DNA of 64,000 bases from Mytilus edulis (Eukaryota), in assembly GCF_963676685.1 (NCBI RefSeq), contig NC_092347.1, forward strand, positions 70,514,935-70,578,934. Direction: 5' to 3'. The number at the start of each line of letters is the position of its first letter. The stretch's first letter is position 1. The notes beneath the pieces were generated by a model. It made no database searches. It worked only from the letters and a program-made list of their open reading frames with translations, and was not told the DNA's origin. The position numbers and the translations under genes were made by a program. Shown piece by piece: positions 16,892 through 46,605 of this stretch.

Positions 16892-17039
16892 TTTGGTGCA
16901 GAATACGGTAACTTCGTTTTCTTGGTATAATCCGTCTTTTGTTTTAATCTGTTATTCAAACTTTCGTTCGCATTTGTTGTGTAATGCGAAAAACCGAAAC
17001 CACAACTAATTCTTAATGGAAGTAATAAGCAGTTTTGCA

Positions 17040-17810
17040 CTAGTTTTTTTTATACTTCAAAAACCATGTATAAAACGCTGGCTCCGTCGTTTTTCTCGGT
17101 TCACATTCTCTCAAGTTCCAAATTGGCTTCAATTCCAACAATTTATTTTCGAAGTCAGTGTCAGTTAAATAATCTGCAAGTCCAACGTTTTTATCAAAAA
17201 TATCTTTAACGAACTGGTTTGTATATGGATTATTTATCCCTAATGTATGCAACTTTCTCTCAAGATTTAATCGCACATGACGCTGGCACTGCATATTTTT
17301 GGAAATTGGCATGTACCTACTAAAGCTGTTAAAAATCGAACATTCATCATCTGTTCCTATAAAGAGTGTGTCAGCTAAAGTGTTTCGGAGGGACACAATC
17401 GAAGAGGCAAAGAAATCAAACTTAAAGGCTCTTTCCGTTTTGGTTTGATGAATAAGCACTGGTCCCAAAAACGTGGGACATTCACCTGTTCTGCGATGAA
17501 TTAGCTTTAAATTCTTGTACACAATGGGCGTTACTACGAATTCGCCGAGGTTAAAAGTTGGGTCTATTCCCATAATTGTACACTCTGAGGGATTAGTAAG
17601 AAACATATCCATTTCCATAAGTTGCAAATCTGATGAACAAATACAGCAGAATTCAGGTGCACATTGTACTACTCTAATGTACGGATCTGCAAGTGATTGT
17701 TGGTCCTTGCATGCTTTTATCAGCTGAAACATACTGTCCCTATCCTTTCCGGCAACTGTGCTTTTCTGTGTTTGCTTTACATTGTAAATCTGTTTAGTGT
17801 TTCTCGGCAA
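17040..17810 (-). CDS. MULE transposase core-domain fragment
   Basis: 256-aa ORF with a DxTF...GP.liH...E.F.FF pattern. Confidence 0.45.
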   Translation of the reverse strand: MPRNTKQIYNVKQTQKSTVAGKDRDSMFQLIKACKDQQSLADPYIRVVQCAPEFCCICSSDLQLMEMDMFLTNPSECTIMGIDPTFNLGEFVVTPIVYKNLKLIHRRTGECPTFLGPVLIHQTKTERAFKFDFFASSIVSLRNTLADTLFIGTDDECSIFNSFSRYMPISKNMQCQRHVRLNLERKLHTLGINNPYTNQFVKDIFDKNVGLADYLTDTDFENKLLELKPIWNLRECEPRKTTEPAFYTWFLKYKKN

Positions 17811-17865
17811 TTCGGCAATTCTAAAGGGCTACTGACATGCTTCATACCACCTGCATCTTCAAAAA

Positions 17866-18459
17866 TCACATCGAAAGTTCTTTTGCGCGTTTCCCAGCGT
17901 CAAGATGTTCACCTATATCAGCCAGTACTCGCTTACTTGTACGTACGTACCGCGTGTTTCCCGTCTTTGTGTTACCATGTACATTCGTGAATATAGGAAC
18001 ATTTCCTTCGACTACATACTGTAAAATTGCAAATTTAGTTGGTTTTCCAGCACTGTCATGCAGTTCATACAATCTTCTCTTAAAACCTTTAGTGTTCTTA
18101 CACATCCAATATGTTCTTGTTAGTCTGTAGACAGAATTTCTCATTACTGAAGGTTTTTTCTTTAATACACTTATATTAGATATTTCTCCATCAGAGATAT
18201 GTACAGAGACAAAATAACGCTGGACTCTATTGTTTTTCATGGCCCCTGCCATATGAATCCGTAGGTCGTCTCGATCTTTCAAAGCTAAAGTGTCAATGAC
18301 AAATGTTGACGTCTCAATGCAATCAACTGGTACTGAGGACACATAATCTTCTTTGTCTCCTTTTAGTATAAGTTTACAAGCCACTTTCAAGGTTAGCTGT
18401 TTAGCAAATTGCTCCATGTCTTCCTTTTCCCTAAAACGTGCAATAACTATATAAGTCAT
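17866..18459 (-). CDS. MULE-like protein, N-terminal fragment
   Basis: ORF of 197 aa, in frame 0 relative to the other two. Confidence 0.4.
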   Translation of the reverse strand: MTYIVIARFREKEDMEQFAKQLTLKVACKLILKGDKEDYVSSVPVDCIETSTFVIDTLALKDRDDLRIHMAGAMKNNRVQRYFVSVHISDGEISNISVLKKKPSVMRNSVYRLTRTYWMCKNTKGFKRRLYELHDSAGKPTKFAILQYVVEGNVPIFTNVHGNTKTGNTRYVRTSKRVLADIGEHLDAGKRAKELSM

Positions 18460-21400: not shown

Positions 21401-22614
21401 GGTGTATGAAAAAAAATATCATAACTGAAAGGGTTATTGAGTTTGGATTGATTGCTTTTGAATTTCTTTCCCTCAATGATATGCTTAGAGAAAGATGAAC
21501 CGAGGAAGATGTTATATTACCTAAATTGAAAATGTTTAATAAACAGAAAATGCGTTTCTCTTTCCAATCTTTTACTCCCCCAACCCCACAAGTTTCATTT
21601 TATCTACTGTATTAATTTTTAAGACACGTCCATCTAAATGAAGTCTGGTTGATCTCCAGCTACCTCCCCCCTCCCCAACCCTGTTTTGAAACAAACTTAA
21701 ACATGATCCCCATTAAATTCTCTATAAAAGATATAGGAATAGACTGATATTTAAAAAGTCGTTATAAATTCCATTGAATTTAAAACTAATCAAAATCAGA
21801 TTCATGTTATTCGGATATTTTTAGATACATTTTTTTTTTGGCAGAAATTACCAAAAATTGTTTTAACTTTTTTTCTTACTTTAAAACACTGATTTAAGAT
21901 TTACATTGTACACAAAATATGATGAAATATGTTATGTCCCAGCTTAGATAAAAAAAAAAAAAAAAAAAAGGAATGAGAGACCTCTCTTTTTTCCTATTTT
22001 GAAACTACGATGTTCGTACAAAGTTCAACTTTGTCTTTATTTTAAAGCAGATGGCAGATTCGGTGTTTGGGGCGAATAGGTCGTTCACCCTTGGATTGGA
22101 CAAAGTATCGTGTTTTAGCATAAAATCGTCAATATTGTTTTAGTCTCGCTACATGTACTCGGTTATATTTTTTTTTTTAATTTTCATGATAGAATAACGC
22201 CCCGTTCCAGGAACCGCCACTAAAGGTAAAAATAGATTTGAACTGTGCAGTATATCTGAGGTAGTTAATGCACACCTTTGCTGTGCATTATCCACATTAT
22301 AGCACAGTAAGAACAAAGAGATTTTACCCATGTCATGTGTTAATGTATGTTTATATGCCCTCACTCTATTTCATTTATATTTACACATTTAAGCATGCCT
22401 CTGTAGAAACTTGGCAAATTCTTCTTCCCACATGATTTTGCTTGACGAGTAGATACAATATGAGCCCAAAAAGAAACCCCACTTTGTTTTTAAATGCTTC
22501 ACGCTACACTGACCTGACTTCAAACGGATTAACTGTTAACATTGATCAATACGTCAATCAAGTCTCATATCTACGGTGGCAGAATGCGGCCATGAAAGAA
22601 AAAAAAATTATGTT

Positions 22615-23160
22615 GTTCCCTCAAGATACTATGTCGTTCCCTCAAGATGCTATGTCGTTCCCACAAGATAGTTATCTCGTTCCCTCAAGATACTATGTCA
22701 TTCCCTCAATATAGTTATCTCGTTCCCTCAAGATACTATGTCGTTCCCTCAAGATAGTTATCTCGTTTTCTCAAGATAATTATCTCGTTCCCTCAAGCTA
22801 CTATGTTGTTCCCTCAAGATGTTATGTTGTTCCCTCAAGATTTTATGTCGTTCCCTCAAGATGATATGTCGTTCCCAAAAGATAGTTATCTCGTTCCCTC
22901 AAGATACTATGTCGTTCCCTCAAGATAGTTATCTCGTTCCCTCAAGATAATTATCTCGTTCCCTCAAGATACTATGTCGTTCCCTCAAGATGTTATGTTG
23001 TTCCCTCAAGATACTATGTCGTTCCCTCAAGATGATATGTCGTTCCCACAAGATAGTTATCTCGTTCCCTCAAGATACTATGTCGTTCCCTCAAGATAGT
23101 TATGTCGTTCCCTCAAGATATCATGTCGTTCCCTCAAGATAGTTATCTCGTTCCCTCAAC
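22615..23160 (+). repeat. Tandem array of about 25 units of 21-22 bp (left arm)
   Basis: Repeating gttccctcaagatactatgtc / gttccctcaagatagttatctc. Confidence 0.85.
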
Positions 23161-24411
23161 ATAGCAATACAATTATATTGATTTATTCTTTATTTCCAAC
23201 TTCGAAACGGTGGAGTAAAGACGTGGAGTTACTTTCAATTCACTTTTTTTTTATCAAATGCGGAACAATGCAAGAACTAGAAATTAAGAGCACCGACACG
23301 AAACACGGAAAATAAATAAGGGGAAATACGAAGCACGCACATCGAACCAAACACGAGAAAACGAGAAAGAAAACACCAAATCACGAAAACACGTAAAATG
23401 AAAAGGCCGAAAACGTTGCACGAAAATAACCCTTTACCACCCTCTTAGAAAATAAAATTAAAAATGAGCTACAAAATGTTTTATCATCTCTTATTCCTGG
23501 ATTTCTAATACATTAACCTTACTGTTTGTGTTGTACATGTGCATATGTATGTAATCAGTATCTTCCTTAGATTTAATTTTTAAATGTTAAAAGGGTGGAA
23601 AATAATTCCTTTTCTGTGTATCCATGGCAACATTCCGCATTTATTTACCATAAAATATTGCAAAAAGGGGGTAAACATGCATGTCACATATCCCCCCAAA
23701 ATTTGGATCAAACTAGAATTTCAATGCCTTTGAGTGATACCTTTTTAGACACTGTTTTCATAAATCTTCCTAATGATCAAATAAAAATTGGATGTCTTTC
23801 GCCTAATTTTTTCGTAAAATCTAATCACAAAGTTCGTGCGACAAAAAGTTGGAAAAAAACATTACAAAAATTGCCGGACCAATGTATGGTATGGACAAAC
23901 AAATACGGACTGTCATACAGAAAACAGCCTATATTACATACATCATATGATCTTGATGTTCATATAAACCCAATACGAAGGCTATTTTAATACTCAGCTA
24001 TCCAAAAATGAATTTTATTGCACACTAGCTCTTATATTTGAAAAATCCTCAGGGGCCAAAATGCGAAACTACACATCCAACTGTGGAGTGCTACCTTTAC
24101 TGGGACTCCGGGATCGGGTGTTTTTAAGCTCAGGATTTCGGGATTGACCCTTTCGGATCCGGGAATTCTTTTTTTCGGATTACGGAACGTCGGGATTTAC
24201 TTTATTTAAATTCGTGATTTCGAGATTTCGTGTTTTTAAGCCCGGGATTTCTGGATCAGGACCCCTCCTATCCCCTCTCATTTATTCTCTTTAAATACAG
24301 AATTATTATATCATTATTATTATTATGCAAATATTCTACTTTTGGGATCTGGCCACGTCTACAGTTCCGCTTCGAAGGGCGAAATGAATAATATATCAAT
24401 ACAATTTTAAA

Positions 24412-24772
24412 ATCTTGAGGGAACGAGATAATTATCTTGAGGGAACAACATAGTATCTTGAGGGAACGACATATCATCTTGAGGGAACAACATAACATCT
24501 TGAGGGAACGACATAGTATCTTGAGGGAACGAGATAACTATCTTGATGGAACAACATAACATCTTGAGGGAACGACATAGCATCTTGAGGGAACGAGATA
24601 ACTATCTTGAGGGAACAACATTACATCTTGAGGGAACGACATAGAGTCTTGAGGGAACGAGATAACTATCTTGAGGGAACGACATAGTATCTTGAGGGAA
24701 CGAGATAACTATCTTGTGGGAACGACATAGCATCTTGAGGGAACGACATAGTATCTTGAGGGAACAACATAT
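24412..24772 (-). repeat. Same tandem array in inverted orientation (right arm)
   Basis: Repeating atcttgagggaacgacatagt / atcttgagggaacgagataactatcttgagggaac. Confidence 0.85.
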
Positions 24773-26399
24773 TTTTTTTTTCTTTCATGGCCGCATTCTG
24801 CCACCGTACATATCTGTTGCAATAATCTTCATCAAAAGATTTTAAGAATTGTTGATGACAAAATAAATTGATTTACTGTAAAGTTCAAAACTTCAAACAA
24901 TGACGATTATGACTGCGTAGTACGGTAGATCTGGTGGGATTTTTTTCTTCAGAAAAACATCATAAGGGGGGCTAAAAAAAATGGGCCAACTATTTGATTT
25001 TCACGGTAAGGGGCAGGAATATTAAAAAATAATTATTACTTTGACCTGGTAAGAACTAAAAAAAAAATGACTTGGCATGAAGATGAGACAAAAATAAATT
25101 GAACTATCATGTTAAAATTTATAAGTTATAGTTACTCTGATTTTTATTTTTGAAAAAGTTTCCAAGTGATAGATGCTAATTGTTCATTCAGTGCTTCTGT
25201 TTTTTAAAGGTCATTTTCTGCAAGGGCTGTTTGTAGTGGAAGTATTTTTTTTTCAAAGCTGCAAGTTATGTATTTCCAAAACAGGTGCTACTTTCTGTAT
25301 TATCTGCTATCATATTTTCGACATATTTGTTGTGTGCTTTTGTTATATTGAACGACAAATTTATGTGACGTATATAATTTTTCTGACGTCAGACACTCAA
25401 ATCAATCCATGTGTTCGTAGATAGTAGATGTTTTTGTGTCCTGTTAAGTTGTTATACGATGATGACTGATGTACCCATATTTTGACTATTTTATTAATTG
25501 TGACTGTTTATTTAACGCATCATGTAAATGTAGCGGAATTTGATGAGACTGTTATTAAAGTGAGACTGAGGGTTAGCGCTATAGAACCAGGTTTAATCCA
25601 CCATTTTCTACATTTGAAAATGCCTGTACCAAGTCAGGAATATGACAGTTCTTGTCCATTCGTTTTTGATGCGTTTTGTTTTTTGATTTTGCCATGCGAT
25701 TATGGACTTTTCAAATTGATTTTCCTCTGAGTTCAGTATTTTTGTGATTTTACTTTTTGTTATATCACTCTCTATTGATTTCGCCAGTTCTCATCATATT
25801 CCCCCCTGATATTCCACCAAAAACCGCTTCTTTCCGTTTCCGTTTCCGTTCCGCATTCCGTTTCCGCCGTTTAGCAACACCCCTTTCCCATTCTCAATTT
25901 GTAACAAAAAAATCAGCACTCAGCAACGGATGTTAAGTCCTCAATGCTCTTAAACATAGTAAATTATTTGGTCTGCTTAATTTTTTGGCTTCGAGAATCA
26001 CTGACGAGTCTTTTGTGGACAAAACGCTCGTCTGGCTTTCAAAATTATAAGACTGATGTCTTTGTTGACGTTGCAGGTGCGCTTGACTCCAATCTTAATT
26101 AAATAAGATAGTCAAGTTTTCAGACCGAAGGTTGGCGATTCTCTCCGACACTCCGTCTTCCTCCACAAATAAAACTGACGACCATGAAATAGCACAACTG
26201 TGCTGAAAGAAGCATTAAACACCAATCAATCAATCATAGAAATGATAATACTATTATTTTTTTATTCATAATTTTTATAAGAAGAAGAAGCTTCATTTCT
26301 TTATTGAATATTTCATTAAAGAGACTTCGTAGGTTCTGGTTTCTAAGACAAATAAAAAATTCTTTCAATCATCATTCACAGTTTGTCTCAGGTTGAACT

Positions 26400-26590
26400 G
26401 AGGCGTATTTCCTTATACCCACACCCAGATAACACTTCCAATATCTGGTGTGGTGTTGAGAGAGCTGTAGCTATTGAAAATCAAGCACTGTTCAGTTTTA
26501 AATACAAAGGCTGTACAATCGGTTCCGTGATGTAGACATAAGTAAGCACAGTAAATCTTTGTTTTGGAATACTCGGTTAGATAAGGAAGA
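26400..26590 (-). CDS. Possible exon encoding a PAN/apple-like Cys pattern
   Basis: Minus-strand frame ...KIYCAYLCLHHGTDCTAFVFKTEQCLIFNSYSSLNTTPDIGSVIWVW, with C..C....C.aF.f....C.L spacing. No splice sites defined. Confidence 0.25.
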
Positions 26591-26904
26591 GTAGTTGGTA
26601 AGGAATCTGTCTTGTCAATATGAAAATACCTCGAACCTGTTAAATATTAAAAATACCATATTTAGGTGGATAATGTAGTAAATATTTCTATCGGAAAACA
26701 ACTGTAGTTCATACAAAATATAAACTCTTCACAAATGTTTTTTTCTTTCTATGTATTCCCCTTCTTTATTAAACTTATAGTGAACATAAAAATAATTAAC
26801 CATCTAAAAATATTCTAAATATATTCTATAGTGACTATTAATTATATAAACCAATAATTTAACACTTTCAAAAGGAAAAGATGCAAAATAAAACATATAA
26901 CAAC

Positions 26905-27200
26905 AAGAATGTGTCCCCAGTACACGAATGCCCCACTCGCACTATCATTTTCTATGTTCAGTGGACCGTGAAATTGGGGTAAAATCTCTAATTTAGCATT
27001 AAAATTCAAAAGATCATATCATAGGAAACATGTGTACTAAGTTTGAAGTCGATTGGACTTCAACTTCATCAAAAACTACCTTGATCAAAAACTTTAACCT
27101 GAAGCAAGACAGACGGACGGACGACCGACCGAATGAACGGACGCACAGACCAGAAAACATAATGCCCCTCTACTATCGTAGGTTGGGCATAAAAATATCC
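26905..27200 (+). repeat. MITE family A, copy 2
   Basis: gtgtccccagtacacgaatgccccactcgcactatcattttctatgttcagtggaccgtgaaa...(gacg/gacc)n...cataatgcccctctactatcgtaggttgggcat. Confidence 0.7.
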
Positions 27201-27886
27201 ACAATCTTGTTGACTCCTTGTTTTGTCATCTCTTTATTTTTCCTCCCGTGGAATGTTAAGGTTGTATGTTATTTTACTTACTGTTTGTACCACCAACATG
27301 CCATTGGCCAGTATTTCCCGTCGGTGTGCTTACTCCTGCTGTTAAACCTTCAACTATATCTTGGGATATGGGATAATGGTTTGCCGTTGGATCTATTGTA
27401 ATTATATATTTTATCATATGTGATGTATGTCTTATAATCGGATAGATATGATGATGATAAAGGGTTAATTTAACGAAGTAGTAGTCTAACTAAATGGTTA
27501 AAACAATTTTTATTTATCCCAACACACGGCCCCCACACTCACCTATATTCTTGACTCCACAAAATTATCATATTACAAAGTTTATCTAGTGTAGATTCTC
27601 GTTTTTCACATTTATGGTAAAATGAGGAAACCTCATACATATTCGTACAAAAAAAGCACCCACACTCAAACATGAGAATATCAGTTTCATTGTTAATTCA
27701 GCTTTTAATATCCATATGTAAACATAGAATATTCTCGCTTCAAAAAAATCAAAATTGAAACACTCGATAAGGTCGACGAAGGTTTTATCTACACACAAAA
27801 AAATCATATTTGTGACAATAAGTATAGCTATACTATATTTATATTTTTTCTTTAAATTTCTTTTTTGAAACCATCATTTTGATATA

Positions 27887-28115
27887 TCAAGAAAAAACAT
27901 ACATACATTGACAAAGAAATAGACTGGTTTCCGTCGCTGCTCTATTATCCCAATCAAAGCCTTTAGTGTAAACAAGTTTAACACGTTGGTTTATAGCATA
28001 TGATGTAGGTTCTCCATAAATCCATGCAGCTTCCGTTAGATCTGTTCCATCATTCCATTTGAATGAAATTCCATCTGCTGACGTCAGTCCAATCCAGAAA
28101 TCGTTATTAACATCC
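27887..28115 (-). CDS. C-type lectin gene L1, terminal exon encoding the C-terminal half of the lectin domain
   Basis: Acceptor tgttacag|G. Frame gives (M)DVNNDFWIGLTSADGISFKWNDGTDLTEAAWIYGEPTSYAINQRVKLVYTKGFDWDNRAATETSLFLCQCMYVFS* with WIGL...W.DG....W..GEP...W.D..C motifs. The phase (2+1) matches the upstream exon. Confidence 0.6.
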
Positions 28116-28850
28116 CTGTAACATATATAGAAATCGTTATTATTGTCCCTGTAACATATTTAGAAATCGTTATTATTGTCCCTGTAACATTTTTTGAAAT
28201 CGTTATTATTGTTCCTGTAATATATTTAGAAATTGTGAGTATTGTCCCTGTAACATGTTTAGAAATCGTGATTATTGTCCCTGCAACATATTTATAAATC
28301 GTTATTATTGTCCCTTTAACATTTTTAGAAATCGTTATTATTGTCCCTGCAACATATTTAGAAATCGTTATTATTGTCCCTGTAACATACTTAGAAATCG
28401 TTATTATTGTCCCTGTAACATACTTAGAAATCATTAGTAATGTCCCTGTCAAATATTTAGAAATCGTTATTATTGTCCCTGCAACATATTTAGAAATCGT
28501 TAGTATTGTCCCCTGTAACATATTTAAAAATCGTTGCTTTTGTCCCTGCAACATATTTAGAAATTTTTATTATTGTCCCTGTAACATATTTACAAAATCG
28601 TTACTATTGTCCTTGTAACATATTCAGAATCGTTATTATTGTCCCTGTAACATATTTAGAAATCGTTAAAATTGTCCTTGTAACATATTTAGAAAACGTT
28701 ATTATTTTCCCTGTAACATATTCAGAAATCGTTATTATTGTCCCTGTAAAATATTTAGAAATCGTTATTATTGTTCCTGAAACATGTTTAGAAATCATTA
28801 TTATTGTTCCTGTAACATATTTTCAAAGACCATTTCAACTGGCAAGAACT
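28116..28850 (-). repeat. 33-bp satellite of about 22 units inside the L1 intron; the unit resembles the 3' splice site plus exon start
   Basis: Minus-strand unit GGACAATAATAACGATTTCTAAATATGTTACAG repeated. The true junction reads tgttacag|GGATGTTAATAACGATTTCTGG. Confidence 0.8.
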
Positions 28851-29585
28851 AAAAAGATAATCGTTATATAAAAAATGACCAGATTTGGTAGTCTTCTCGG
28901 AGTGCGAATTGAGTAATTTTAAATGATTTCCGTTCAATTCCATTGTCACATCAGTAAATATCAGAAAGAAGAAGTAGTATAATTGTCAATGAGACAACTC
29001 TCCACAAGAGTCCAAATGACATAGAAATTGGTAGCCCATAACGCACCTATAGTCAGATATAAATTTAAAAGGCCACAAAATCACAAATGTAAAACAACTC
29101 AAATGGGAAAAATGGCCTGATTTATGTTAAAAAAATGAACGAAAAACAAATATTTTTGTATGTAACACCACAACTACTGAATTACAGGTTCCTGACTTGG
29201 GAGCAATTACACAAGGATTTAAGAATAGCAAGTGGAATTAGTTAGTCCAGTTACCCAGTTACTTATATATATACTGAACAGTAGAATTAGTGATTATTTC
29301 TGCACTGAGGCAACGAAGCAGCATATTGTCTCGATTATCATAGTGTAGGGAGTGTATGCGTACAATTTAAGTATTTCCAAAGGATTTCCCCTTAATAAGG
29401 AGTGTTTACTTACAATTAGAGTGTAGAAATGGGAGAGAAATAATTATTCTAATTCCCTTTGAGATATAATAAATTTTAGAAGAACAGTTACGACATGTTT
29501 AAAAAAAAAACCCAGATTAGTTTCTGTTACATTATCAAGTGTATCTAAAAAGGTAGATTCTGATTTCAGTATTTCTATTACTTAC

Positions 29586-29724
29586 ATTCCCTGGTAGACA
29601 ATAGCATTCTTGGCAACTGTAAACATTTCATTTGTGGGTAGCATGGCCAGCTCTAAAGCATTCATTTCACAATCCTGTTTAGCAGTTTGATAATCAACGG
29701 AGTAACTCATCGGCATATAATTAT
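29586..29724 (-). CDS. C-type lectin gene L1, exon encoding the N-terminal half of the lectin domain
   Basis: (D)NYMPMSYSVDYQTAKQDCEMNALELAMLPTNEMFTVAKNAIVYQG, with a WxEAxxxCxxxGAxLA-type pattern. Acceptor ...ctgaatgtag and donor GGAAT|GTAAGT. Confidence 0.55.
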
Positions 29725-30731
29725 CTACATTCAGAAATAAGAGACTTTTGTAAGAAACTCAATGAAACAACATACAGACAATACATTATACTTTGTAAAG
29801 CAGTAGGACAAGACTCTGGATTAATTAGCACACACGTTGACGGATTCCTTTCAAGAATTCAAAGTATATAACACCTTGGTGTGCGTACTGTTTGGTTTAG
29901 GCAACATGTAACAACTATGCATTTTTATGTACATGTATTCAAATTAAAAAAAAAATGTTCCTAGAAGGATATAAACAAATCGAATATTATATTAAAATTT
30001 CCCGGCATACATACATGTATAAGCTTAATAATTTTTTGACTTTGTGGAAAATTGAGAATATAAAAATATAACAGGCTATATGTATTTACAAACCGTTGAG
30101 TCTTATGATTATTTACTTTCCAATATTGACAATTCTAAAACATTCAAATATTAAAGTTGTAAAACGTGCGTTATATTTGAATAAAGAAGAACAAAACATT
30201 ACAGTTTTTGTCCATTCGTTTTTGATGTGTTTTGTTATTTTGATTTTGCCATGTGAATATGGACTTTCCAATTCGATTTTTCTCTAAGTTCAGTATTTTT
30301 GTGATTTTACTTTTTACACGTAATTAATTTCATACTATTTTACTTCTGATTCGAATGTATGAGAATTAAATTTCCCCATAAGTTTTTGGAGTATTCGAAC
30401 AGATCAATTTGAAATACCATTTGATTTGTATGGGGGGCTAGGATGAGAAATGTTGTCCTGCATTTTTTTTTAGTTGTTATCTCTGTTCTGCCTTTTTATT
30501 TTTCACTCTTTTCGGTCCTGCATTTTTTTCTTAGTTTATCCTGACTTTTTTACATAAATTGTCATCCTGCCTTTTTTTTTTGCAAATTTGCTCCTCCTGC
30601 CTTTTTAAACTTAAAATTGCCATTTTCAAATTTCATTCTAGCCACCCCCGCCCCCATAAAATAAAATGGTATCTGTCTTAACAAAAAAGCTCAAAATTCT
30701 ACAACATCATGTATAATGACTGAAGTTCATC

Positions 30732-30963
30732 TTAAACCTGTAACAACTTACGTTGACATAACGCATGAGGCAGTCTGGTAGATTTAGTTTTTGACACCCA
30801 CGTACCATCGACCTTGTCCACCGCTATAGAGACGTTTGCAGCCGGATTGGGAACAGTGTGACCTGGTTTCCAGTCTGTATAAACCACACTTTCTAACATG
30901 TTTTGCCAGGTTAGATATGCTCCATTGCCATACAAACCTATCCATATGTCACCAGTCAGAGTT
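30732..30963 (-). CDS. C-type lectin gene L2, terminal exon (C-terminal half)
   Basis: gtgttag|AACTCTGAC... gives (E)TLTGDIWIGLYGNGAYLTWQNMLESVVYTDWKPGHTVPNPAANVSIAVDKVDGTWVSKTKSTRLPHALCQRKLLQV*. Confidence 0.6.
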
Positions 30964-31705
30964 CTAACACAAACAAACATAGTTTACTTATACATTGCAG
31001 GTTAATCTAGTTTCAGTGCCACCACAAACACAATATGCTTAAAACTTTCACAATGATTATTTCAGGAAATACAGTTAACTGTTTCATATCTCATGTGGCA
31101 CAGAGAAACTTTTCATTGTCTGCTGCAAACTCTATCTTTAAATAAACTTATATAATATACAAAAGCTAATTTTGTGTCTTATATGCGTTTTTTTAATTAA
31201 TTTCTCGTGACGCACCACTTCAAATACTATCAATCCTTTGATAAATAAAACAAAAATAAAATAAAAATGCAAATTCAACTGAAGAGCGTCTAGGAATTTT
31301 TAATCAATAAATATAATATCTTAGCTGTATTCCGATTAACTTTTCAAAAATGTTGGCCCTTAATGCTCTTCGTACTTTATTTGAACTTTTGAGTTATTAT
31401 TCTAGCAGGCACTGCATGATGAATCTTTTTCAACAAAATGCGCGTCTTTAGTACAAAATTATAAGCCAGGGTCCGAAGCTACCAAAAGACATGTCATAAG
31501 ATGTATCTTAGGACATATCTAATGATTCTCTTATGACTATCCTAGGACATATATCAGACCTCGCCTCGAAGCTGTCCTAGGATGATCTTAGCAAAGATAT
31601 TCTAAAACTGCTGCAAGTACTTTAAATTTTCAAATATTAACATAGATTTATGGAAAACAATCATGTGAATGTAGTGTTGACTGATCTTAACTTGAAAATA
31701 CATAC

Positions 31706-31850
31706 TCATAAGTTATGAAATCTTTTAAAAACGTAACGGCAACTGGGTTAGAAAACACAGCTAATTGTCCACCTAAGTTATAACATTCCTGTGAGGCTTC
31801 GTAATAGTTGTAATCTCCATGGATAAATGTCACGTCTGGATGAGGAGGTG
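31706..31850 (-). CDS. C-type lectin gene L2, N-terminal-half exon
   Basis: ttttgcag|CACCTCC... gives APPHPDVTFIHGDYNYYEASQECYNLGGQLAVFSNPVAVTFLKDFITY(E). Donor GA|GTATGT. Length 145 nt, phase 1 in and 2 out. Confidence 0.55.
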
Positions 31851-32165
31851 CTGCAAAACAACAGTATACAAGTAGAATATAGATAGGGTGACTAGATGAG
31901 GGAATCCTTTAATCGACAATATGCTTTAAAATTCTCAAAGAAAATAGTCGAGCGGATCTGGTTATCAAAATGATGATTAATAGTTTTTATCAACTTGTAA
32001 TGGAATTTAAATTTGAATGACATATAGTGTAACAAAAGACTGTATCCACTTTCAAATATAAATAAAAATTTAACACAAAACTGAACACTAAAACATGATT
32101 GTGAAAGAAAAGAGTTACATGAAAAAATATCTAGAAAATAGAATTTGGAAACATGTACGTTTCTA

Positions 32166-32385
32166 CTAAACATATATACAGTGATACACACCAAAACATA
32201 GAGGTCGATTAAGTTCCGTGTAGGCGCCCGTATTCCACAATACATAAGCATAAGCCTGGCTAAACTTTCCAAATTCCAATAGTGGTTCGAGGGCTGCCCA
32301 TGAATCATAGTCCAATGTTTTGCCATCATCCCAATGACAAAGTTGGTTTGTACAAGATACAGACATCCATACATCATCGAAAATG
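32166..32385 (-). CDS. C-type lectin gene L3, terminal exon (divergent C-terminal half)
   Basis: tttttttaacag|G gives (E)GIFDDVWMSVSCTNQLCHWDDGKTLDYDSWAALEPLLEFGKFSQAYAYVLWNTGAYTELNRPLCFGVYHCIYV*. The phase is compatible with the 35185-35326 exon. The lectin-domain consensus is partly degenerate. Confidence 0.4.
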
Positions 32386-32559
32386 CCCCTGTTAAAAAAA
32401 TACATATATGTATCAAAATTTGTTTTTGTCCCGGCCGATAAAGCTGCTAATAATATTATTATTGTTTGACGTAAATTTTACATTGAGGTTCTGAAAAAGG
32501 AAATCACCAATTCACCAACATTCCAACTGACTCCATTTTCAGAAAACGAAATCTGTAAC

Positions 32560-34560
32560 AAACATAAACTTTTAGCCACCGCTTTACAAGCAGAGCCAAA
32601 TACAATGAAAGTCTTAACTATGTATTGGCTTCCGAAGCTACACAAAACCCCTTACAAATATAGATTTATTTCGTCTTCAAGCCATTGTTCAACTACTAAA
32701 TTGTCTATTCTTCTTACCAGCACACTTGGTACAATTAAAAACCTGATAATAAATTGTTCAAATAAGGCCTTCGAAAATAGTGGAATAAATTACTTTTGGA
32801 GTGTCAAGAACTCGTTGGAAGTACTTGATAAATTGCATGCTTATATTGGTGATTTTGAATCAGTTCAAAGTTTTGATTTTTCTACCCTGTATACCACATT
32901 GCCTCATATTCTCATTAAGAAAAAATTCACACACCTAATTAAATGGGCATTCAAAAAAATCAGAATGTGAATATATATGTTCAAACTCTTTTAGGTCATT
33001 TCTTAGTAGCAATAAACAAAAAAAACTATGTTAATTGGACATGCTTTGATACTATATATGCCCTTGAATTTTTACTAGATAACATTTTTGTTCGCTTTGG
33101 GGATTCCGTATATCGTCAGATTATCGGAATTCCAATGGGGACTAACTGTGCACCACTTATTGCGGACCTGTTTTTGTATTGTTATGAGTTACAATTTATG
33201 ACAAAAATAAGCAAAGACCCATCGAAACAACATCTGATAAACAAATTTAATAATACTTTTAGATATTTGGATGATATTTTGGCTCTCAATAATGACGACT
33301 TCAGTATGTATATTAATGAAATTTATCCTGTTGAACTTACTTTAAATAAAGCTAATACTAACAATGACCACTGCCCTTTTCTCGATCTTGATATCTATAT
33401 CACTAATGGAAAGCTGAATACTAAAATTTATGATAAAAGGGATGATTTTTCATTTCCTATCGTTAATTATCCGTTTTTAGATGGTGACGTTCCCTTGTCA
33501 CCATCTTACGGTGTTTATATATCTCAACTTGTACGATTCGCTCGTGTATGTAACAATGTTTTAGATTTTAACGAGAGAAATTTATGTATTACTGAAAAAT
33601 TATTACACCAGGGTTTTCGATATCACAAACTAGTCAAAACATTTACTAAATTTTATCATCGGTATAAATACATCATTCGTAATTATAGCTCAACATGCAG
33701 ACTTCTAATACGTTCAGGTATTTCACATCCAATTTTTTTATGGAAATATTCTTTATAAAGCACAAAGGTGTCAGTATTCACCTCAGAAACTTACAAAACC
33801 TTTGAATAGACTTATTAAGAAGGGATATAATTACGATACTGTTGTCAAGTCATTAAAGATTGCATATTTTGGCGTTAATATTGACTCACTGATAAGGTCT
33901 TTGCATCGGAACTAAACACATTTATTCTAAAAACAGTTGTTGGCATGACACGGGTTATGTTCTTCTCATATATGTTATGATGGTATGATACTAAACCCCT
34001 AACGGGAAGGATTGTGCCTGATGTTCATATGATGAAATCATAATCTTTCAGTCAGTTTAATTGAAGTCTGGAGCTGGCATGTCAGTTAACTGCTAGTAGT
34101 CTGTTGTTATTTATGTATTATTGTCATTTTGTTTATTTTCTTTGGTTACATCTTCTGACATCAGACTCGGACTTCTCTTGAACTGAATTTTAATGTGCGT
34201 ATTGTTATGCGTTTACTTTTCTACATTTGTTAGAGGTATAGGGGGAGGGTTGAGATCTCACAAACATGTTTAACACGCCGCATTTATGCGCCTGTCCCAA
34301 GTCAGGAGCCTCTGGCCTTTGTTAGTCTTGTATTATTTTAATTTTAGTTTCTTGTGTACAATTTGGAAATTAGTATGGCGTTCATTATCACTGGACTAGT
34401 ATATATTTGTTTAGGGGCCAGCTGAAGGACGCCTCCGGGTGCGGGAATTTCTCGCTACATTGAAGACCTGTTGGTGACCCTCTGCTGTTGTTTTTTTATT
34501 TGGTCGGGTTGTTGTCTCTTTGACACATTTCCCATTTCCATTCTCAATTTTATTATCAAT
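32560..34560 (+). mobile_element. Penelope-like retroelement (RT ORF with one frameshift, plus an about 700-bp tail), sitting in the L3 intron
   Basis: ORFs 32605-32970 and 32943-33758: MYWLPKLHK (PLE-type PKxHK motif), FDFSTLYTTLPH, GIPMGTNCAPLIADLFL and FRYLDDIL (YxDD). The tail 33810-34560 recurs at 10280-10960. Confidence 0.55.
32605..33758 (+). CDS. Reverse transcriptase (Penelope-like), frameshifted around 32950
   Basis: RT motifs as above; two overlapping frames. Confidence 0.55.
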
Positions 34561-35184
34561 ATAACTATACCAAAGATATGCTTACAGATTAAAACTTTTT
34601 TTATACATTTATGTTTTATTATGTTTAAATTGTTCAGCGAATATTGTCGATACTTAGAATGCAATAACTGCGACTATTTTGTATTTTACCAGTTGTAGGT
34701 GTTATCAGTGGCGGATTCCTGCCTTGATAGTGAGTAGACGACTGGGCGTTCACCTCTATTCTAGACGGCTAATGCTTGTAAATATCTTTTTAGGATTTAA
34801 ATGATTTTAGCACATAATAGTTCAATAAAATGGAGACTCACTCCGCATGGCACTATTTTTTTTTAATACTTTTGACCAAAGAGCAGCCGGACAATGAGTA
34901 TTTAGTTCGAATTAGGGATACGAATTTGACAGCTAATGTCCCAAGAAATGTGTACATTATATTTTCAAAATTAATTACAAATCATGTAAACTCGTACAAA
35001 TGGAAAATGGAAAAATCGTTGTTATACGTTATCACAAAAACACAAATCGCTGGGTTAAATCGGTCTAGTTTTAGCTGAATGTTAACAACTTTTAAAAAAG
35101 TAGTGATATTTAATAGAAAGGTTGAACATTTTGCAACCAGAGATTTTCCTTTCCCCTTTGCTAGCTACTAGACTATATACTTAC

Positions 35185-35326
35185 TCAGACGTGATGAATT
35201 GTGCTGCCATATTGTTCATTTGATCGTTGTTGATTTTTACCAGTTTCATTCCAATGTTTATACAGTAATCTAATGAATCATAATAATTCAAAGTGGATGG
35301 TCCTAGATAGAAATATGGACTGAAAC
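35185..35326 (-). CDS. C-type lectin gene L3, N-terminal-half exon
   Basis: ttttctgcag|GTTTCAG... gives (G)FSPYFYLGPSTLNYYDSLDYCINIGMKLVKINNDQMNNMAAQFITS(E). Donor CTGA|GTAAGT. Length 142 nt. Confidence 0.55.
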
Positions 35327-38300
35327 CTGCAGAAAAATACAATAATTGAAAATTCAGTCGTAGTACATTTTTCTTTCTTTGATTTTGTGTGAGTTTTTTT
35401 GGGTACTTTTATTTTCAGGCCAGGTGAAGCACGCCTCCGGGTGCGGGAGTTTCTCGCTGCATTTAAGACTCATTGGTGGCCTTCGGCTATTGTCTGCTCT
35501 TTGGTTGTTAGTTCTTTGTCACTTTCCCCATTTCTATTCTCAATTTTATGTAAAGTTATGTATGAATGAAAGGAGATGTGTGATACAAGTCAATGAGATA
35601 GGAACCTAACGAAACAACAATAAACAAAGTTTGAAGTGGTCCATACTTAGGACAAGTACATGAGCCTCTCTCTGTCTTTTTACATTTTTTAAAAATATTT
35701 CCACCCTTCTGTTATATTGTTGTATGTACAAGGAAGTGTGACGTGTTTGCAACGATAGCGTCAAACAGAGCATTATAGAGCAAGAACAATCTCAATCATA
35801 ATTGAAATATTTTTTTACACTTTATAAATTTCGTGCGCCTGATGCGCATTTTTTGGTTTATCTTCATTAGGAACGCGCAAATCTAAAAATATATAGGGAG
35901 TTGGTTTCATTGGCAATTTGCAGTGACTTTATTTTTTGGGAGAGCTAATTGGAACAGGGGTACCTATTGTCCAGTCCATTTACTGTCATTTACGAATCTT
36001 TCACTTTATCATAAATAAAAGGTAATAAATTTGTGGCAAGATAAATGGTAAACTTAAACTGTAAAATTGATTCAGTGATTCAAAAAAATATATGTGTATG
36101 TGCGCGTTCGCTATATTCGTAGACTTAGTTTGGGTTTTAAAATATTGATTTGACAGGAAACAAATTATAAAAAAGTCGTCCTAGTATGCAAATCATAACT
36201 ACGGACGTCATTTGGTGTGAAAATTTGGAAAAATGATATCATAAGAACTAATAAACGAACCCTGTTACAGTTATTTACACAATTTTCCACTAAATCAGTG
36301 TATCGTATTTCAAAATGTCATACCTTTTAATAAGTAAAGTCGGTATATTCGTCGATACCGGTACGTTACATATGCGTGTATTAGTATTACATTTTCGCGA
36401 GAAATATCATTACTCTTCCAAGTATTGTACGTTTATGAACATGATGAAAGGGCCATAATTAGACCTTCTATAGCTTATAATAAAGGGAAGAATTCGTGTA
36501 AGACGAAACTGAGAACTGGTGACCAATCTACCACCCGTTATCACGGTCTCGCACTACTGGTATATATATACAGCCACCTGATGAATACTCTTGGCATGGA
36601 CGAAACCTGTTTTAAATTACTAATATATTTGAAATCCGCACATTTAATTTAATGATATTTCTCGCGCTGAAATCCGCACATTCAAATGTAATGATATTTC
36701 TCGCGCAAATGCAACATTTTTCCCAGAAAGGTAAAAACCATGGTCCAAACGACACCAGAAAATTGAATGGATATTCGTGAAGTGAAATATATAATAGGAC
36801 TTTTAGAAAGATAGTTGTATTTAATAGCATGGCAAATATACAGGAAGATGTATAGGATAAAGTCGCGCAAATATATATATATTTTTGTTCGCGCGAACAT
36901 AATGTTCGTTATTCACAAAATTCACCCTGCGTCTATACAGGTTTACATACCTCGTATTATGACCACTTGTAAGAAGAGAATCCAAGACAGCTTCAAAGGT
37001 ATCATTGTAAAAAAAGATATATTAAATTGAATAAACACTTGCAAACACTAAAATAAATGGCTTTCAATTTGTTTAAGGAGAACTGCGCCCTAGGTTTACA
37101 TGAAATGATATCCAACACATAATCATCCAGGCTTTAAATTATTCTATATACCATGAAGCAAAAGATGTGTTATTAAATTGAATTCAAATTTATAGGTCAA
37201 TTAAATAAATATATATTATATTTGTCTGGAGTTATTTGTTAGTAAATTAACTCTGGGAAGTCAAAACCTGAATACATAAACAAATACATGTAGATAACAA
37301 TAGACACAAAAACAAATTTGAATTTAAAGCCGGTATGTAAATAATAGTATTGGTGTAAATAGTAAAAAAAGTACGTATGAACGCGTGGTCTTTGTTTCAC
37401 TTTACATCGTTACAGGTTCAAATATAGTCCTCGTGTACTTGGGCCTGTTTTCTATTCAATGCCCTTTTTTATATATTGATCTACATTGTATGTTTGTCCC
37501 AAATGGAAGAAATATAACAATTGGTAAATCAATTGTACCATTCAGTGACCAAAAAATATGGACTATTCGGCCGGTATCTATTTCACTGACGTCTTCACTC
37601 GCAGTCAACAGTATTTGAAAAGAAGTTTATTAACTCGTAGATTTTGTATATATTCGTAATGACTCACTTTTAGTATTGTTTTTGTTTTGTATTTTTACAA
37701 ATTGTCAATCTCATCTGGTAATGCATATACCAATAGATTCTTAATACGCACCGAGAGAGATACACTTACCCCTTAAGTTGAGGCTGTGACATTATTTTTA
37801 AAATTTTAAAGCAGAGTGCTTTAAAGAGTATAAAACACTGTAGTTGAATTTGTTTCTATAATATTATTTTTATGCCGCTGAATTCAAATTCAGTACTGTT
37901 TAGACATTTCGCTTGCAGTCAATCAATCCAGTTCTGTTCTATATCATTTCAGACCTTTGTTGAATTTGAATAAAAGAGATAAACAAATATTAGTCAGAAC
38001 AGTCTGAAATAGACAGAGCATATTTTATTGACTGTAATCGATGCGTCTAAATAGCACTAAATTTGCGCGAACGCTTAACTTTAACCAATGAAAGTTAGTT
38101 AAAACTCTGAATTCATACTACATTGTATAGGGGATAAGTCTGAAAATGTATTTACAAACTGAAAATGATTGATTAATTTAGAGATCAGTTTCTTTTAAGA
38201 TATGTTCAGATTAAACGTATCGTTTATTTTCGCGAAATAAAGTTGACCTAACCTTATGGTACATTAAGAAAAAGGTCCCAACCTGGGGCCAACGGATATA

Positions 38301-39113: not shown

Positions 39114-40302
39114 CTACAATCCCCTTCCCTTTCATAAATGTGACCTACCGAATTATAATACTATTTACTGGGTTTGTAATCACATAAGCAACACGACGGG
39201 TGTCACATGTTGAGCAGGATCTGCTTACCCTTTCGGAGCACCCGAGATCACCCCTAGTTTTTGGTGGGGTTCATGTTGTTTATTCTTTAGTTTTCTATGT
39301 TGTGTCATGTGTACTATTGTTTGTCTGTTTGTCCTTTTCATTTCAAGTTAGCCATGGCTTTGTCATTTTATTTTTGATTTATGAGTTTGACTGTCCCTCT
39401 GGTATCTTTCGTCCCTCTTTTATACGTTCATATTTTCATTTATCTTCTAAAAGAAATGCACTACGAAATAATTGTGGTCTCGGACCTGCTGTTTTATAAT
39501 TGCCAATTTCAAATGAGAATATATCCAGATCAGAGATACTGAGCCTTTAATTTTAATTGACAACTTATTTGTTACATTTGGAGGATGAGTCTGAACATAC
39601 TAGTAGTCAGTCAGGATTCTTATTTGGAAGCAAAAGTGCTTGTTTCTTCAATCCGTTAAGGCAGACTTCAAGTAACTACTAAGTTGTGTCTAACCACCTC
39701 CGCTACATAAGGGGGTCTCATATAGTCAATATGTTCATAGAGGGGGGGCAAGGGGGGTCCCAATAACAGCATAACAGCAAATTGATTTGGCTTATAACAG
39801 ATAACAAGGAATTAAAATGGACAAAAACAGATAACAGTAAATGAAATATTAAAATAAGTCAGGTCCTGGACTGATTGAAAGATTATGTCTCCATCATATG
39901 AAAATCAAGCACAATCCCTTCCGTTGCTGAATTTTTTCATTAATTGTAACTCATAACAATACAGAAACAGGTCCACAATAAGTGGTGCACAGTTAGTCCC
40001 CATTGAAATTGTGATAGCTTGACAATATACGTAAACTTCATAGCAGACAAAAATGATATCTAGTAAAAATTAAGGGCAGTTATGGTATCAAAGCAGGTCC
40101 AATTGACATAGTTCTTTTGTTTGTTATTACTAAAAAATGACCTGAAAGAGTTTGAATATATATATTTGCATTCTGAATTTTTTTAAATGCATGTTCAATG
40201 CATGAAGTGTGATTTTTTTCTTAATAAGACTACGAGGCACAGTGGTATATAGGGTAGAAAAATCAAAGGCACAAATTATAAGCATGCAATTTATCAAGTA
40301 CT

Positions 40303-40535
40303 TCAAAATAATTTTGACACTCCAATTATTCCACTATTTTCAAAGGCCTTATTTGAACAACTTATTATCAGGTTTTTTAGTGTACCAAGTGTACTAGTAA
40401 GTAGAATACATAGTTTAGTAGTGGAACAATGGCTTAAAGACGAAATAAATCTTTGTTTGTAATGAGTTAGGTGCAGCTTCGGAACCCAGTACATGGTTTG
40501 AACTTTCATTGTACAATGTATTTGGTTCTGCTTTG
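40303..40535 (-). mobile_element. Penelope-like element 5' fragment (third copy), with the same 5' start as the 32560 copy
   Basis: MKVQTMYWVPKLHLTHYKQRFISSLSHCSTTKL... against MKVLTMYWLPKLHKTPYKYRFISSSSHCSTTKL.... About 25 nt upstream of the ATG also match (gcaga[ag]ccaaataca[at]tg). Confidence 0.5.
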
Positions 40536-41700
40536 AAAAGAATCACAGATCTGAGTCTGTGTACTTTATTATGTAAAATGTTATTGCGAACCCTATCTTA
40601 GTTTTCCATAGATTCACCTGCAAGTTACCTGTCCATTTAAACTTTTGTAAGTCCTATTGTCCCATCTAACAAATACAACAGGTATTGTTCTCTGTGTAGT
40701 TTATTCACTGGGACCTTTAAATTTCTTCTAGGAGAAATATATCACTCATTGATTAATTTACCTGACCAAAAAATTATCTTCTTTTTTATTGAAATACTTC
40801 TAATAACTCACATAAACTGTATGCAATATTGTATTTATTCAATATTATCATTAATATATTTTCAATCTGTTCAATATAAAATCTGGTTTAATACTAAAAA
40901 GTTTATTTCAGACACATTTTTTAGTATTTTCCAATGAATTTACATGTTTTTGTTGTTGTTCATTTATAGACTTATGTTTATGAAGACCTTAATTTAAAAA
41001 TAATAATATTCAATTTTTATGCCCCATCTACGATAGTAGAGGGGCATTATGTTTTCTGGTCTGTGCGTCCGTTCGTTCGTCCGTCCGTCCGTCCGTCCGT
41101 CTGTCCCGCCTCAGGTTAAAGTTTTTGGTCAAGGTAGTTTTTGATGAAGTTGAAGTCCAATCGACTTGGTACACATGTTCCCTGTGATATGATCTTTCTA
41201 ATTTTAATGCCAAATTAGAGATTTTACTCCAATTTCACGGTCCAATGAACATAGAAAATGATAGTGCGAGTGGGGCATTCGTGTACTGAGGACACATTCT
41301 TGTTTATTTATCAAACACACAAAAATATTGAATATTTGATCAGAAATCAACTTTTAATTTTTGAATCAGTATTTCAAATGTAATATTGAACACATTAAAA
41401 ACGAGTTACTCCAGGTATCGAATAAATACAACACCACATGCAGTTTTGTGAGTCCTTACTTAGTATTGGTATAAGTATTTTTTCTTCATTGACAGTTCAA
41501 TTTTTTACTCAGGTAGATTAATCAATGTGTGATATATTTCTCCTAGAAGAAATTTAAAGGTCTGAATGAATAAACTACACAGAGAACAATACCTGTTGTA
41601 TTTGTTAGATGGGACAATAGAACTGCCAAAAGTTTAAATGGACAGGTAACTTGCAGGTGAATCTATGGAAAACTACGATAGGGTTCGCAATAATTGGTAG
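40510..41700. repeat. About 1.2-kb imperfect palindrome with a MITE-A copy at its centre
   Basis: 40510-40770 is the reverse complement of 41510-41700 (e.g. ...cctgcaagttacctgtccatttaaacttttg... / ...caaaagtttaaatggacaggtaacttgcagg...). Weaker inverted similarity continues toward the centre (40800-41020 against 41300-41500). Confidence 0.6.
41022..41305 (-). repeat. MITE family A, copy 3
   Basis: atgccccatctacgatagtagaggggcattatgttttctggtctgtgcgtccgttcgttcgtccgtccgtcc... Confidence 0.7.
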
Positions 41701-42559: not shown

Positions 42560-42667
42560 CAAAAGGGGGGGGGGGCAGGTGGGAACCCCCTTTTTTGGAC
42601 GATCAATGCATTTGAAAGGGAGCAAATTGTTGGACCTCCTTTTAAAATTGCTGGATCCACCCCTGAT
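42560..42667. repeat. MITE family B copy, adjacent to MITE-A copy 4
   Basis: aaagggggggggggcaggtgggaacccccttttttggacgatcaatgcatttgaaaggg...ctggatccacccctg. Confidence 0.5.
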
Positions 42668-42950
42668 GTGTCCCCAGTACATGCATGCCCCATCAGCACT
42701 CGTGATCATTTTCTATGTTCAGTGGACCGTGAAAACGGGCGAAAATCTCTAATTTAGCATTACAATTAGAAAGATCATATCATAGGGAACATGTGTACTA
42801 AGTTTCAAGTTGATTGGACTTCAACTTCATCAAACATTTCCTCGACCAAAAACTTAAACTTGAAGCTGGACAGACGGACAAACGGACGAACGAATGAACA
42901 AACGAACGCACTGACCAGAAAACATAATGCCCATAAATGGGGCATAAAAA
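42668..42950 (+). repeat. MITE family A, copy 4; forms an inverted pair with copy 3 about 1.36 kb away
   Basis: gtgtccccagtacatgcatgccccatcagcactcgtgatcattttctatgttcagtggaccgtg...cataatgcccataaatggggcat. Confidence 0.7.
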
Positions 42951-46439: not shown

Positions 46440-46605
46440 TAAAAACAGAAAGATCATATCTAAGGAACTCATGTGTAGTAAGTTTAAAGTTGATTGGACT
46501 TCAACTTCATCAAAAACTACCTGGACCATAAACTTTAACCTGAAGCAGGACGGACAGACAGACCAGAAAACATAATGCCCATAAATGGGGCATAAAAATA
46601 GTAAG
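46440..46605 (+). repeat. MITE family A, copy 5 (internally deleted)
   Basis: gatcatatctaaggaactcatgtgtagtaagtttaaagttgattggacttcaacttcatcaaaaactacc...cataatgcccataaatggggcat. Confidence 0.6.

Follow-up and report, generated by a model that had tools for sequence, protein, structure and literature searches.

The 64,000-nucleotide (nt) stretch of Mytilus edulis DNA analysed here (RefSeq assembly GCF_963676685.1, contig NC_092347.1, positions 70,514,935 to 70,578,934 of the forward strand; hereafter the window) is AT-rich, with a GC content of about 33%. On its minus strand, between positions 37005 and 26413, it very probably carries a single gene of nine coding exons that encodes a secreted product with three C-type lectin-like domains (CTLDs) and a C-terminal PAN-like module. 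The locus is already annotated in RefSeq and is functionally uncharacterised; its product falls within a type already described, the secreted multi-CTLD lectins of bivalves. An earlier note on this DNA had described three tandem paralogous lectin genes (L1, L2 and L3), each with the lectin domain divided between two exons. The six minus-strand exon pieces are indeed found at the places given for them, flanked by canonical ag|...|gt sites. The partition into three genes was not sustained, since there is one signal-peptide exon, the module boundaries are in phase 1 and a unique splice path leads to the 477-amino-acid (aa) protein XP_071171077.1.

A nine-exon gene on the minus strand

A construct in which the six pieces are joined into three domains (346 aa) matches XP_071171077.1 (P0001), annotated as "lymphocyte antigen 75-like [Mytilus edulis]", with 99% identity and 100% coverage. 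Comparison of this protein with the window by tblastn revealed three extra exons, a signal-peptide exon and two 3' exons, and an exhaustive search of AG/GT(GC) sites near the approximate boundaries left only one path whose translation is identical to P0001 at every position. Along this path the phases of the CTLD exons alternate 1/2/1/2/1/2/1, and introns 1 to 8 measure 1624, 2796, 341, 742, 1027, 1470, 514 and 645 nt. A family hidden Markov model (HMM) built from nine CTLDs of three species was run on all stop-free segments in six frames; its matches in the 64-kb window were confined to the six exon halves, with no other CTLD module. The exons are as follows:

36951-37005, minus strand: exon 1, ATG and signal peptide (MIPLKLSWILFLQVVIIRG), ending in phase 1; tblastn with 100% identity, unique splice path
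35185-35326, minus strand: exon 2, first half of CTLD1 (first exon of L3), phase 1 to 2; family HMM E 3.5e-21
32192-32388, minus strand: exon 3, second half of CTLD1 (second exon of L3, both ends corrected), phase 2 to 1, donor TTTG|gtgtgt
31706-31850, minus strand: exon 4, first half of CTLD2 (first exon of L2), phase 1 to 2; a Mytilus coruscus transcript block ends here
30752-30963, minus strand: exon 5, second half of CTLD2 (second exon of L2, 3' end corrected), phase 2 to 1, donor CAAC|gtaagt
29586-29724, minus strand: exon 6, first half of CTLD3 (first exon of L1), phase 1 to 2; splice path and transcript
27907-28115, minus strand: exon 7, second half of CTLD3 (second exon of L1, 3' end corrected), phase 2 to 1, donor CAAT|gtatgt
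27282-27392, minus strand: exon 8, Thr/Gly/Pro-rich linker, phase 1 to 1, missing from the earlier note; tblastn, splice path and transcript
26413-26636, minus strand: exon 9, four-Cys PAN/Apple-like module and stop codon, likewise missing from the earlier note

The exons that hold the N-terminal halves of the domains had been delimited exactly (35326-35185, 31850-31706 and 29724-29586; 142, 145 and 139 nt). The 3' ends of the C-terminal halves had been set 20-26 nt too far, at 27887, 30732 and 32166 in place of 27907, 30752 and 32192, because the splice donor was read through to the next stop; the second exon of L3 begins at 32388, after aacag|GGGCAT, and not at 32385, which follows 'gg'. It is the read-through of phase-1 donors that made one modular gene look like three. 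Downstream of exon 9, AATAAA/ATTAAA signals are present at 26305 and 26266, and the 3' untranslated region of an M. coruscus transcript aligns down to about 26290. Weak tblastn matches of exon peptides at 49913-49734, 60359-60273, 575-441 and 56071-56154 lacked support from the family HMM and were dismissed as chance, and a tRNA scan of the window found none.

The protein consists, in order, of a cleavable signal peptide, three tandem CTLDs, a Thr/Gly/Pro-rich linker and the C-terminal four-Cys PAN/Apple-like module. In a Kyte-Doolittle scan of the whole protein the only hydrophobic segment was that of residues 1-20; no transmembrane segment was detected, and the C-terminus (...GSVIWVWV) follows directly after the PAN-like module. 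The search for signal-peptide exons proposed in the earlier note yielded one such exon (37005-36951), not one per supposed gene.

Clustering at 90% identity groups P0001 with full-length models of three CTLDs from another annotation of M. edulis (CAG2243796, "CD206", 481 aa), from Mytilus trossulus (478 aa) and from Mytilus galloprovincialis (477 aa). The same exons were located in four other Mytilus species, and intact full-length open reading frames (ORFs) could be rebuilt in three of them: the loci of M. trossulus, M. galloprovincialis and Mytilus californianus have nine exons with canonical splice sites and intact ORFs (475-478 codons, the window included). Exon lengths are identical across loci save for exon 3 in M. 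trossulus (one codon) and exon 9 in M. californianus (two codons), and the exon 3 donor and exon 4 acceptor are conserved in five Mytilus species. In M. californianus (L005 110-12016) the nine exons form an intact ORF of 475 aa, of which the 220-aa RefSeq model in the database is a truncation. The genomic contig of M. coruscus holds the signal-peptide, CTLD1 and CTLD2 exons, all open, and stops after exon 5; the 259-aa model of this species (P0002) is a chimera made at the contig end.

Evidence at the RNA level was provided by two intronless Logan contigs of M. coruscus, from SRR13891816 (1292 nt) and SRR13891787 (1279 nt). Each aligns to the window as six blocks, which match exons 4-9, and terminates at the poly(A) signal; within exons 4 and 5 the identity to the M. 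coruscus locus is 98.6-100%. Given this match, L2 and L1 together with two further exons are spliced together in real RNA, and the transcript check that the earlier note had called for bears out, in M. coruscus, the exon pairs of L2 and L1, which are each spliced and joined to one another. Both contigs open with a 124-nt exon that maps to intron 3 of the M. coruscus locus (L006 12264-12387) and is spliced onto exon 4; its origin may lie in an alternative promoter, in a cassette exon or in an artefact of assembly. For contig L002, the initial 28 nt map nowhere in the compared loci.

Domains, constraint and competing readings

The joined exon pairs give peptides of about 111-118 aa. Each pair exceeds the gathering score of Pfam Lectin_C (PF00059, 22.6 bits), at 29.0, 31.3 and 23.8 bits, which answers the profile check suggested earlier, and the whole protein scores 70.7 bits in three stretches. 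As had been noted, a phase-2 intron splits every CTLD: in all three the split codon lies 7 residues before the tryptophan of the WIGL-type motif (E66/W73, E180/W187 and M297/W304), which reads WMSV, WIGL and WIGL in CTLD1, CTLD2 and CTLD3, respectively. The C1 and C4 cysteines are kept (Cys40/130, Cys154/249 and Cys269/365, predicted to form disulfide bonds), and CTLD1 contains, in addition, the pair Cys78/Cys83, which other species conserve. At the positions of the C2-C3 pair no cysteine occurs in any of the three CTLDs; when CTLD3 is aligned with MRC1 and with a M. coruscus paralogue (P0136), these positions are occupied by Lys/Arg and Ala. This pair forms the long-loop disulfide and is described as conserved within the family (PMC12842671); its loss is a variant within the CTLD superfamily and not a ground for exclusion from it. 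The canonical EPN/QPD and WND motifs are also absent, being replaced by EPL/WNT in CTLD1, KPG/WVS in CTLD2 and EPT/WDN in CTLD3. Among proteins of solved structure, the nearest are the human macrophage mannose receptor, through its CTLDs (E 1.7e-10), and also tetranectin and lectins of invertebrates; it is owing to the proximity of mannose-receptor CTLDs that the database names "lymphocyte antigen 75-like", "CD206" and "MRC" were given. Pfam matches to Xlink (link domain) were discarded; they fall below threshold and span only the helix alpha-1 region.

The two-exon architecture shared by the domains points to duplication of a module, as the earlier note proposed. The copies are only about 25-34% identical to one another, and for this reason the event would be ancient and intragenic, not a recent local duplication of genes. 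The three CTLDs would have arisen by tandem duplication, inside the gene, of a symmetric phase 1-1 cassette of two exons. The ratio of nonsynonymous to synonymous substitution rates (dN/dS, Nei-Gojobori) for CTLD1 is 0.16, 0.23, 0.35 and 0.48 in four species pairs, for CTLD2 0.13-0.37 and for CTLD3 0.19-0.42, with a single higher value for CTLD3 (0.77) that is noisy, as it rests on four nucleotide differences. For every domain pair with enough substitutions the ratio thus falls between 0.13 and 0.48, and every domain is under purifying selection. The suggestion that L3 is decaying, made from its cysteine pattern, has to be abandoned, as CTLD1 is intact in five species, its dN/dS is 0.16-0.48 and the loss of C2-C3 is common to all three CTLDs.

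The module encoded by exon 9 comprises the last 73 residues of the protein, with four cysteines. Relatives were sought by an exhaustive HMMER search of 1.84 billion representatives, and few were found. One of them (P0133) is 38% identical across the whole module (E 2e-5) and passes PAN_3 with 26.7 bits; another is the paralogue P0136, in which CTLDs precede the module as they do here; three others (P0131, P0132 and P0134) were set aside as repetitive proteins with incoherent Pfam matches. A word-index homology search with the 111-aa C-terminal region returned no candidates. When a ten-sequence profile of the module was compared with the PDB, all the matches were to PAN-fold structures, namely the N domain of hepatocyte growth factor (E 0.01) and the PAN domain of SRK9. 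Cys433, 437, 444 and 454 are invariant in the module alignment and align with the cysteines of the hepatocyte growth factor N domain, and the core pattern C-x3-C ... C-x9-C around an 'AFVF'-type strand is present. Based on these features exon 9 would encode a divergent PAN/Apple-like module, an assignment made with moderate confidence.

Several observations weigh against the account given here. The module of M. edulis scores below the Pfam cut-offs (13.3 bits for PAN_1, 15.7 and 16.6 bits for PAN_2, against 21.1-21.4 bits), and the AlphaFold2 prediction made on a six-sequence orthologue alignment was unusable (predicted local distance difference test score, pLDDT, 27.9), so that neither the CTLD nor the PAN fold is confirmed in three dimensions. 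The transcript evidence comes from M. coruscus and not from M. edulis itself, and those transcripts begin in the intron-3 exon, without signal peptide and CTLD1. The junction between exons 3 and 4 is predicted from gene models, phases and conserved splice sites, not from reads; it is further supported by the 341-nt spacing and by the single signal-peptide exon. Any function attributed to the protein is read entirely from its sequence.

Three other readings of the locus were considered. If L1, L2 and L3 were separate single-CTLD tandem genes, each would end at its read-through stop and possess a signal-peptide exon of its own. Such stops do exist, as read-through of each donor meets one within 7-9 codons, and the resulting ends occur in two database entries, the M. 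coruscus model P0002 and an 82-aa Logan ORF (P0009). P0002, however, is the chimeric model described above, and the first residues of P0009 ('MFVCVR') are translated intron, on a contig of 942 nt, which identifies it as an ORF from unspliced sequence. Moreover, there is one signal-peptide exon only, a promoter and a leader exon could not be accommodated in the 341 nt that separate L3 from L2, every module is bounded by conserved phase-1 splice sites, and M. coruscus transcripts join L2 directly to L1, all of which makes separate genes extremely improbable. It may also be envisaged that the locus comprises two transcription units or alternative promoters, with the signal peptide and CTLD1 separate from, or optional with, a CTLD2-CTLD3-PAN transcript driven from a promoter in intron 3. 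The 124-nt exon at the start of both M. coruscus contigs would fit this arrangement, as would the stops upstream of the CTLD2 frame and the called protein, which begins with an internal Met and lacks a signal peptide. Nevertheless, no counterpart of the 124-nt exon was detectable in the window, where intron 3 measures 341 nt (338 nt in M. galloprovincialis, about 4 kb in M. coruscus); the exon 3 donor and exon 4 acceptor are conserved in five species, CTLD1 is as constrained as the other domains, and a lectin devoid of signal peptide would be odd as the main product. An internal promoter is therefore a quite unlikely basis for the locus, and the corresponding isoform is possibly at most a minor or species-specific product.

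The remaining reading, that of a decaying gene or pseudogene, or of a CTLD1 that alone has ceased to be functional, could appeal to the absence of the C2-C3 cysteines and of the canonical EPN/WND motifs from all three CTLDs and to an overall dN/dS that is fairly relaxed (0.41) at the deepest comparison. Yet the ORFs of 475-478 codons are intact in the window and in three other species and the exons on the M. coruscus contig are all open, exon lengths and splice sites have been kept, every domain has a dN/dS well below 1, M. coruscus transcribes the gene and splices it correctly, and the retroelement and the tandem array described below are both intronic. Decay has, accordingly, hardly any probability, and the locus is best described as one nine-exon gene for a three-CTLD protein.

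A splice-junction minisatellite and other repeats

The satellite that the earlier note saw in the intron of L1 is a tandem array located at the boundary between intron 6 and exon 7:

28096-28822, minus strand: minisatellite of 22 units of 33 bp in intron 6, running into the exon 7 acceptor; TRF and unit-by-unit analysis

The unit, aaatatgttacag|GGACAATAATAACGATTTCT, is composed of the last 13 nt of the intron followed by the first 20 nt of exon 7 and, because it carries both, each unit constitutes a pseudo-3' splice site. Copy number amounts to 22 in M. edulis, 40 in M. galloprovincialis and about 13, degenerate, in M. trossulus (orthologous array regions compared: L004 9013-10330 and L003 12911-13410). 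M. californianus has no array, its junction sequence being single-copy (L005 10600-10660), and on this basis tandem duplication of the junction between intron 6 and exon 7, within the M. edulis species complex, is taken as the origin of the array. The AG is kept in 12 of the 13 units that are still in register, and in 10 a TAA follows in frame after a few codons; the unit closest to exon 7 lacks this TAA and would add 11 residues in frame.

A similar arrangement has been described in human F7, where the first unit of a 37-bp variable number tandem repeat (VNTR) in intron 7 extends across the donor of exon 7 (Borensztajn et al., 2006, PMC1557585). In both cases a minisatellite derived from a splice junction flanks the real site with near-identical pseudo-sites. 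In the mussel, on the other hand, the array lies at the 3' splice site, upstream of a real acceptor that is the last copy, and consists of 13-40 copies of 33 bp. That the length of the array tunes protein output through use of the decoy acceptors by the spliceosome is a speculative and rather unlikely proposal. If true, most decoys would lead to a premature stop and hence to a lower dose of the secreted recognition protein, and the locus would be a natural 3'-splice-site counterpart of the splice-choice model of human F7 intron 7. As a natural experiment, the minisatellite could be informative on how 3' splice sites are chosen.

The intron of L3 (intron 2) had been said to carry a whole Penelope-like element plus a separate 700-bp repeat. 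The class is right, the element is not whole, and the supposed repeat is the 3' part of the retroelement itself (33805-34542). A further fragment is present in intron 1:

32411-34553, plus strand (antisense to the gene): Naiad-type Penelope-like retroelement, 5'-truncated and frameshifted, intron 2
35403-35549, plus strand: retroelement 3'-end fragment, intron 1 (family D6 of the repeats)

The intron 2 element comprises 2143 nt, including one copy of a 6-nt flanking repeat, TATCAA (TTGATA on the gene strand). TTGATA flanks it on both sides and is single-copy at the empty site; the corresponding introns of M. galloprovincialis (667 nt) and M. trossulus (953 nt), the two compared there, lack the element, which represents a dated insertion with a clean empty site. 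Its reverse transcriptase begins mid-domain and contains a frameshift and stops. The family has more than 4000 relatives, one of which (P0050) passes RVT_1 and displays a CQC motif upstream of its reverse transcriptase. The motif 'VPADKAANN' lies upstream of 'LPKLHK...RFI' in the reverse transcriptase. An Rfam search over the whole window gave no matches, hammerhead ribozymes included, and the idea that the conserved 3' motif of the element is a hammerhead was dropped for lack of an Rfam match. Pfam GIY-YIG was not found in any of eight long relatives, and the window copy lacks the N-terminal region through truncation.

Naiad elements are characterized by DKA in place of DKG, the absence of a canonical hammerhead and heavy 5' truncation (Craig et al., 2021, PMC8557442), as well as by an N-terminal GIY-YIG endonuclease linked by a CxC motif and by their dominance in bivalve genomes (PMC8557442). 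The element examined here shares with this clade the DKA motif, the absence of a hammerhead, 5' truncation, very high copy number in bivalves and abundant short 3'-end copies, and differs in that the window copy is a dead fragment devoid of the N-terminal GIY-YIG and CxC region. A canonical element of the Penelope/Poseidon type with a C-terminal GIY-YIG was rejected on account of the DKA motif and because the reverse transcriptase is not followed by an endonuclease. The 3' part of about 740 nt matches a more truncated copy at 10270-10955; shorter 3'-end fragments are located at 4699-5032, 15269-15404 and 35403-35549, and a reverse-transcriptase fragment at 39924-40533. Adjoining the latter is a pair of inverted repeats (40581-40775 and 41499-41693; 195 nt, 94% complementary, 723 nt apart), which could be inverted truncated copies of the kind that Penelope-like elements form. 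In a 732-aa relative of the retroelement (P0015) a complete reverse-transcriptase copy is preceded by, and fused to, the terminal part of another, a partial tandem arrangement of the sort described for Penelope-like elements.

About 2.9 kb of the 10.6-kb gene span matches elsewhere in the window, a count that includes the self-matches of the array, and the repeat load of the gene is unremarkable for Mytilus. Two dispersed repeats were recorded within introns:

26902-27196, no strand assigned: dispersed repeat of about 250-300 bp, intron 8; other copies at 167-422, 41013-41304, 42666-42932 and 46449-46563
28952-29202, no strand assigned: dispersed repeat, intron 6; related copies at 5846-6127, 13652-14063 and 15184-15256

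The 250-300-bp repeat has a (GTCC/GGAC)n-like tail and occurs in at least 5 copies in both orientations. The intron contents, namely the retroelement, the minisatellite and the short dispersed repeats, would represent neutral baggage. Elsewhere in the window, two inverted blocks of 21/43-bp tandem repeats (22565-23206 and 24391-24813) flank about 1.2-1.9 kb in a foldback-like arrangement, with arms of up to 189 nt that are 97% complementary. On the minus strand at 16265-18459 three consecutive ORFs of 208, 256 and 197 aa may be the remains of a transposase-derived gene; the 208-aa ORF matches a SWIM zinc finger below threshold (18.4 bits, cut-off 19.6).

Relation to known lectins and proposed role

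Secreted lectins with three and four CTLDs are documented in bivalves, including CfLec-3 of Chlamys farreri with three and AiCTL-9 and Cnlec-1 with four (PMC12842671). The protein described here resembles them in its signal peptide, tandem CTLDs, absence of a transmembrane segment and bivalve origin. It departs from them in that its CTLDs have neither the C2-C3 pair nor EPN/QPD and WND, in the addition of a C-terminal PAN-like module, and in being known from sequence alone. With the mannose-receptor family (MRC1/CD206, LY75/DEC-205, PLA2R and Endo180; CTLD group VI) it shares tandem CTLDs in one polypeptide. Known members of group VI, however, have at least 8 CTLDs (PMC514892), whereas three, not 8-10, are found here; Pfam detects no ricin-type cysteine-rich or fibronectin type II domain in a protein whose mature form starts with CTLD1, and there is no transmembrane segment or cytoplasmic tail. 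The database name "lymphocyte antigen 75-like" reflects best-hit similarity and not orthology. The M. coruscus paralogue mentioned above (P0136, CAC5368022.1, "MRC") has the same order of CTLD...CTLD followed by the module, with about 40% identity in the latter; its last CTLD keeps EPN and the C2 and C3 cysteines, which the gene in the window has lost.

By analogy with the use that bivalves make of such proteins, the product would be a secreted, soluble, multivalent recognition protein with a role in humoral or mucosal defence and in particle recognition. Since the C2-C3 disulfide and the EPN/QPD and WND motifs are absent from all the CTLDs, binding is probably not the classical Ca2+-dependent recognition of mannose or galactose; sugars may be bound by another mode. 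The mildly unusual features of the locus are limited to two, the uniform loss of C2-C3 in constrained CTLDs and the minisatellite derived from a splice junction.

The value of these results lies mainly in correct annotation, in a group of organisms in which secreted multi-CTLD proteins are hugely expanded. Reading past a phase-1 donor to the next stop makes one modular gene resemble several paralogues, and the same error, or truncation, affects the database models of M. coruscus (259 aa) and M. californianus (220 aa). As its CTLDs are constrained and have dispensed with the C2-C3 disulfide and the Ca2+-sugar motifs, the protein is a candidate for non-canonical ligand recognition.

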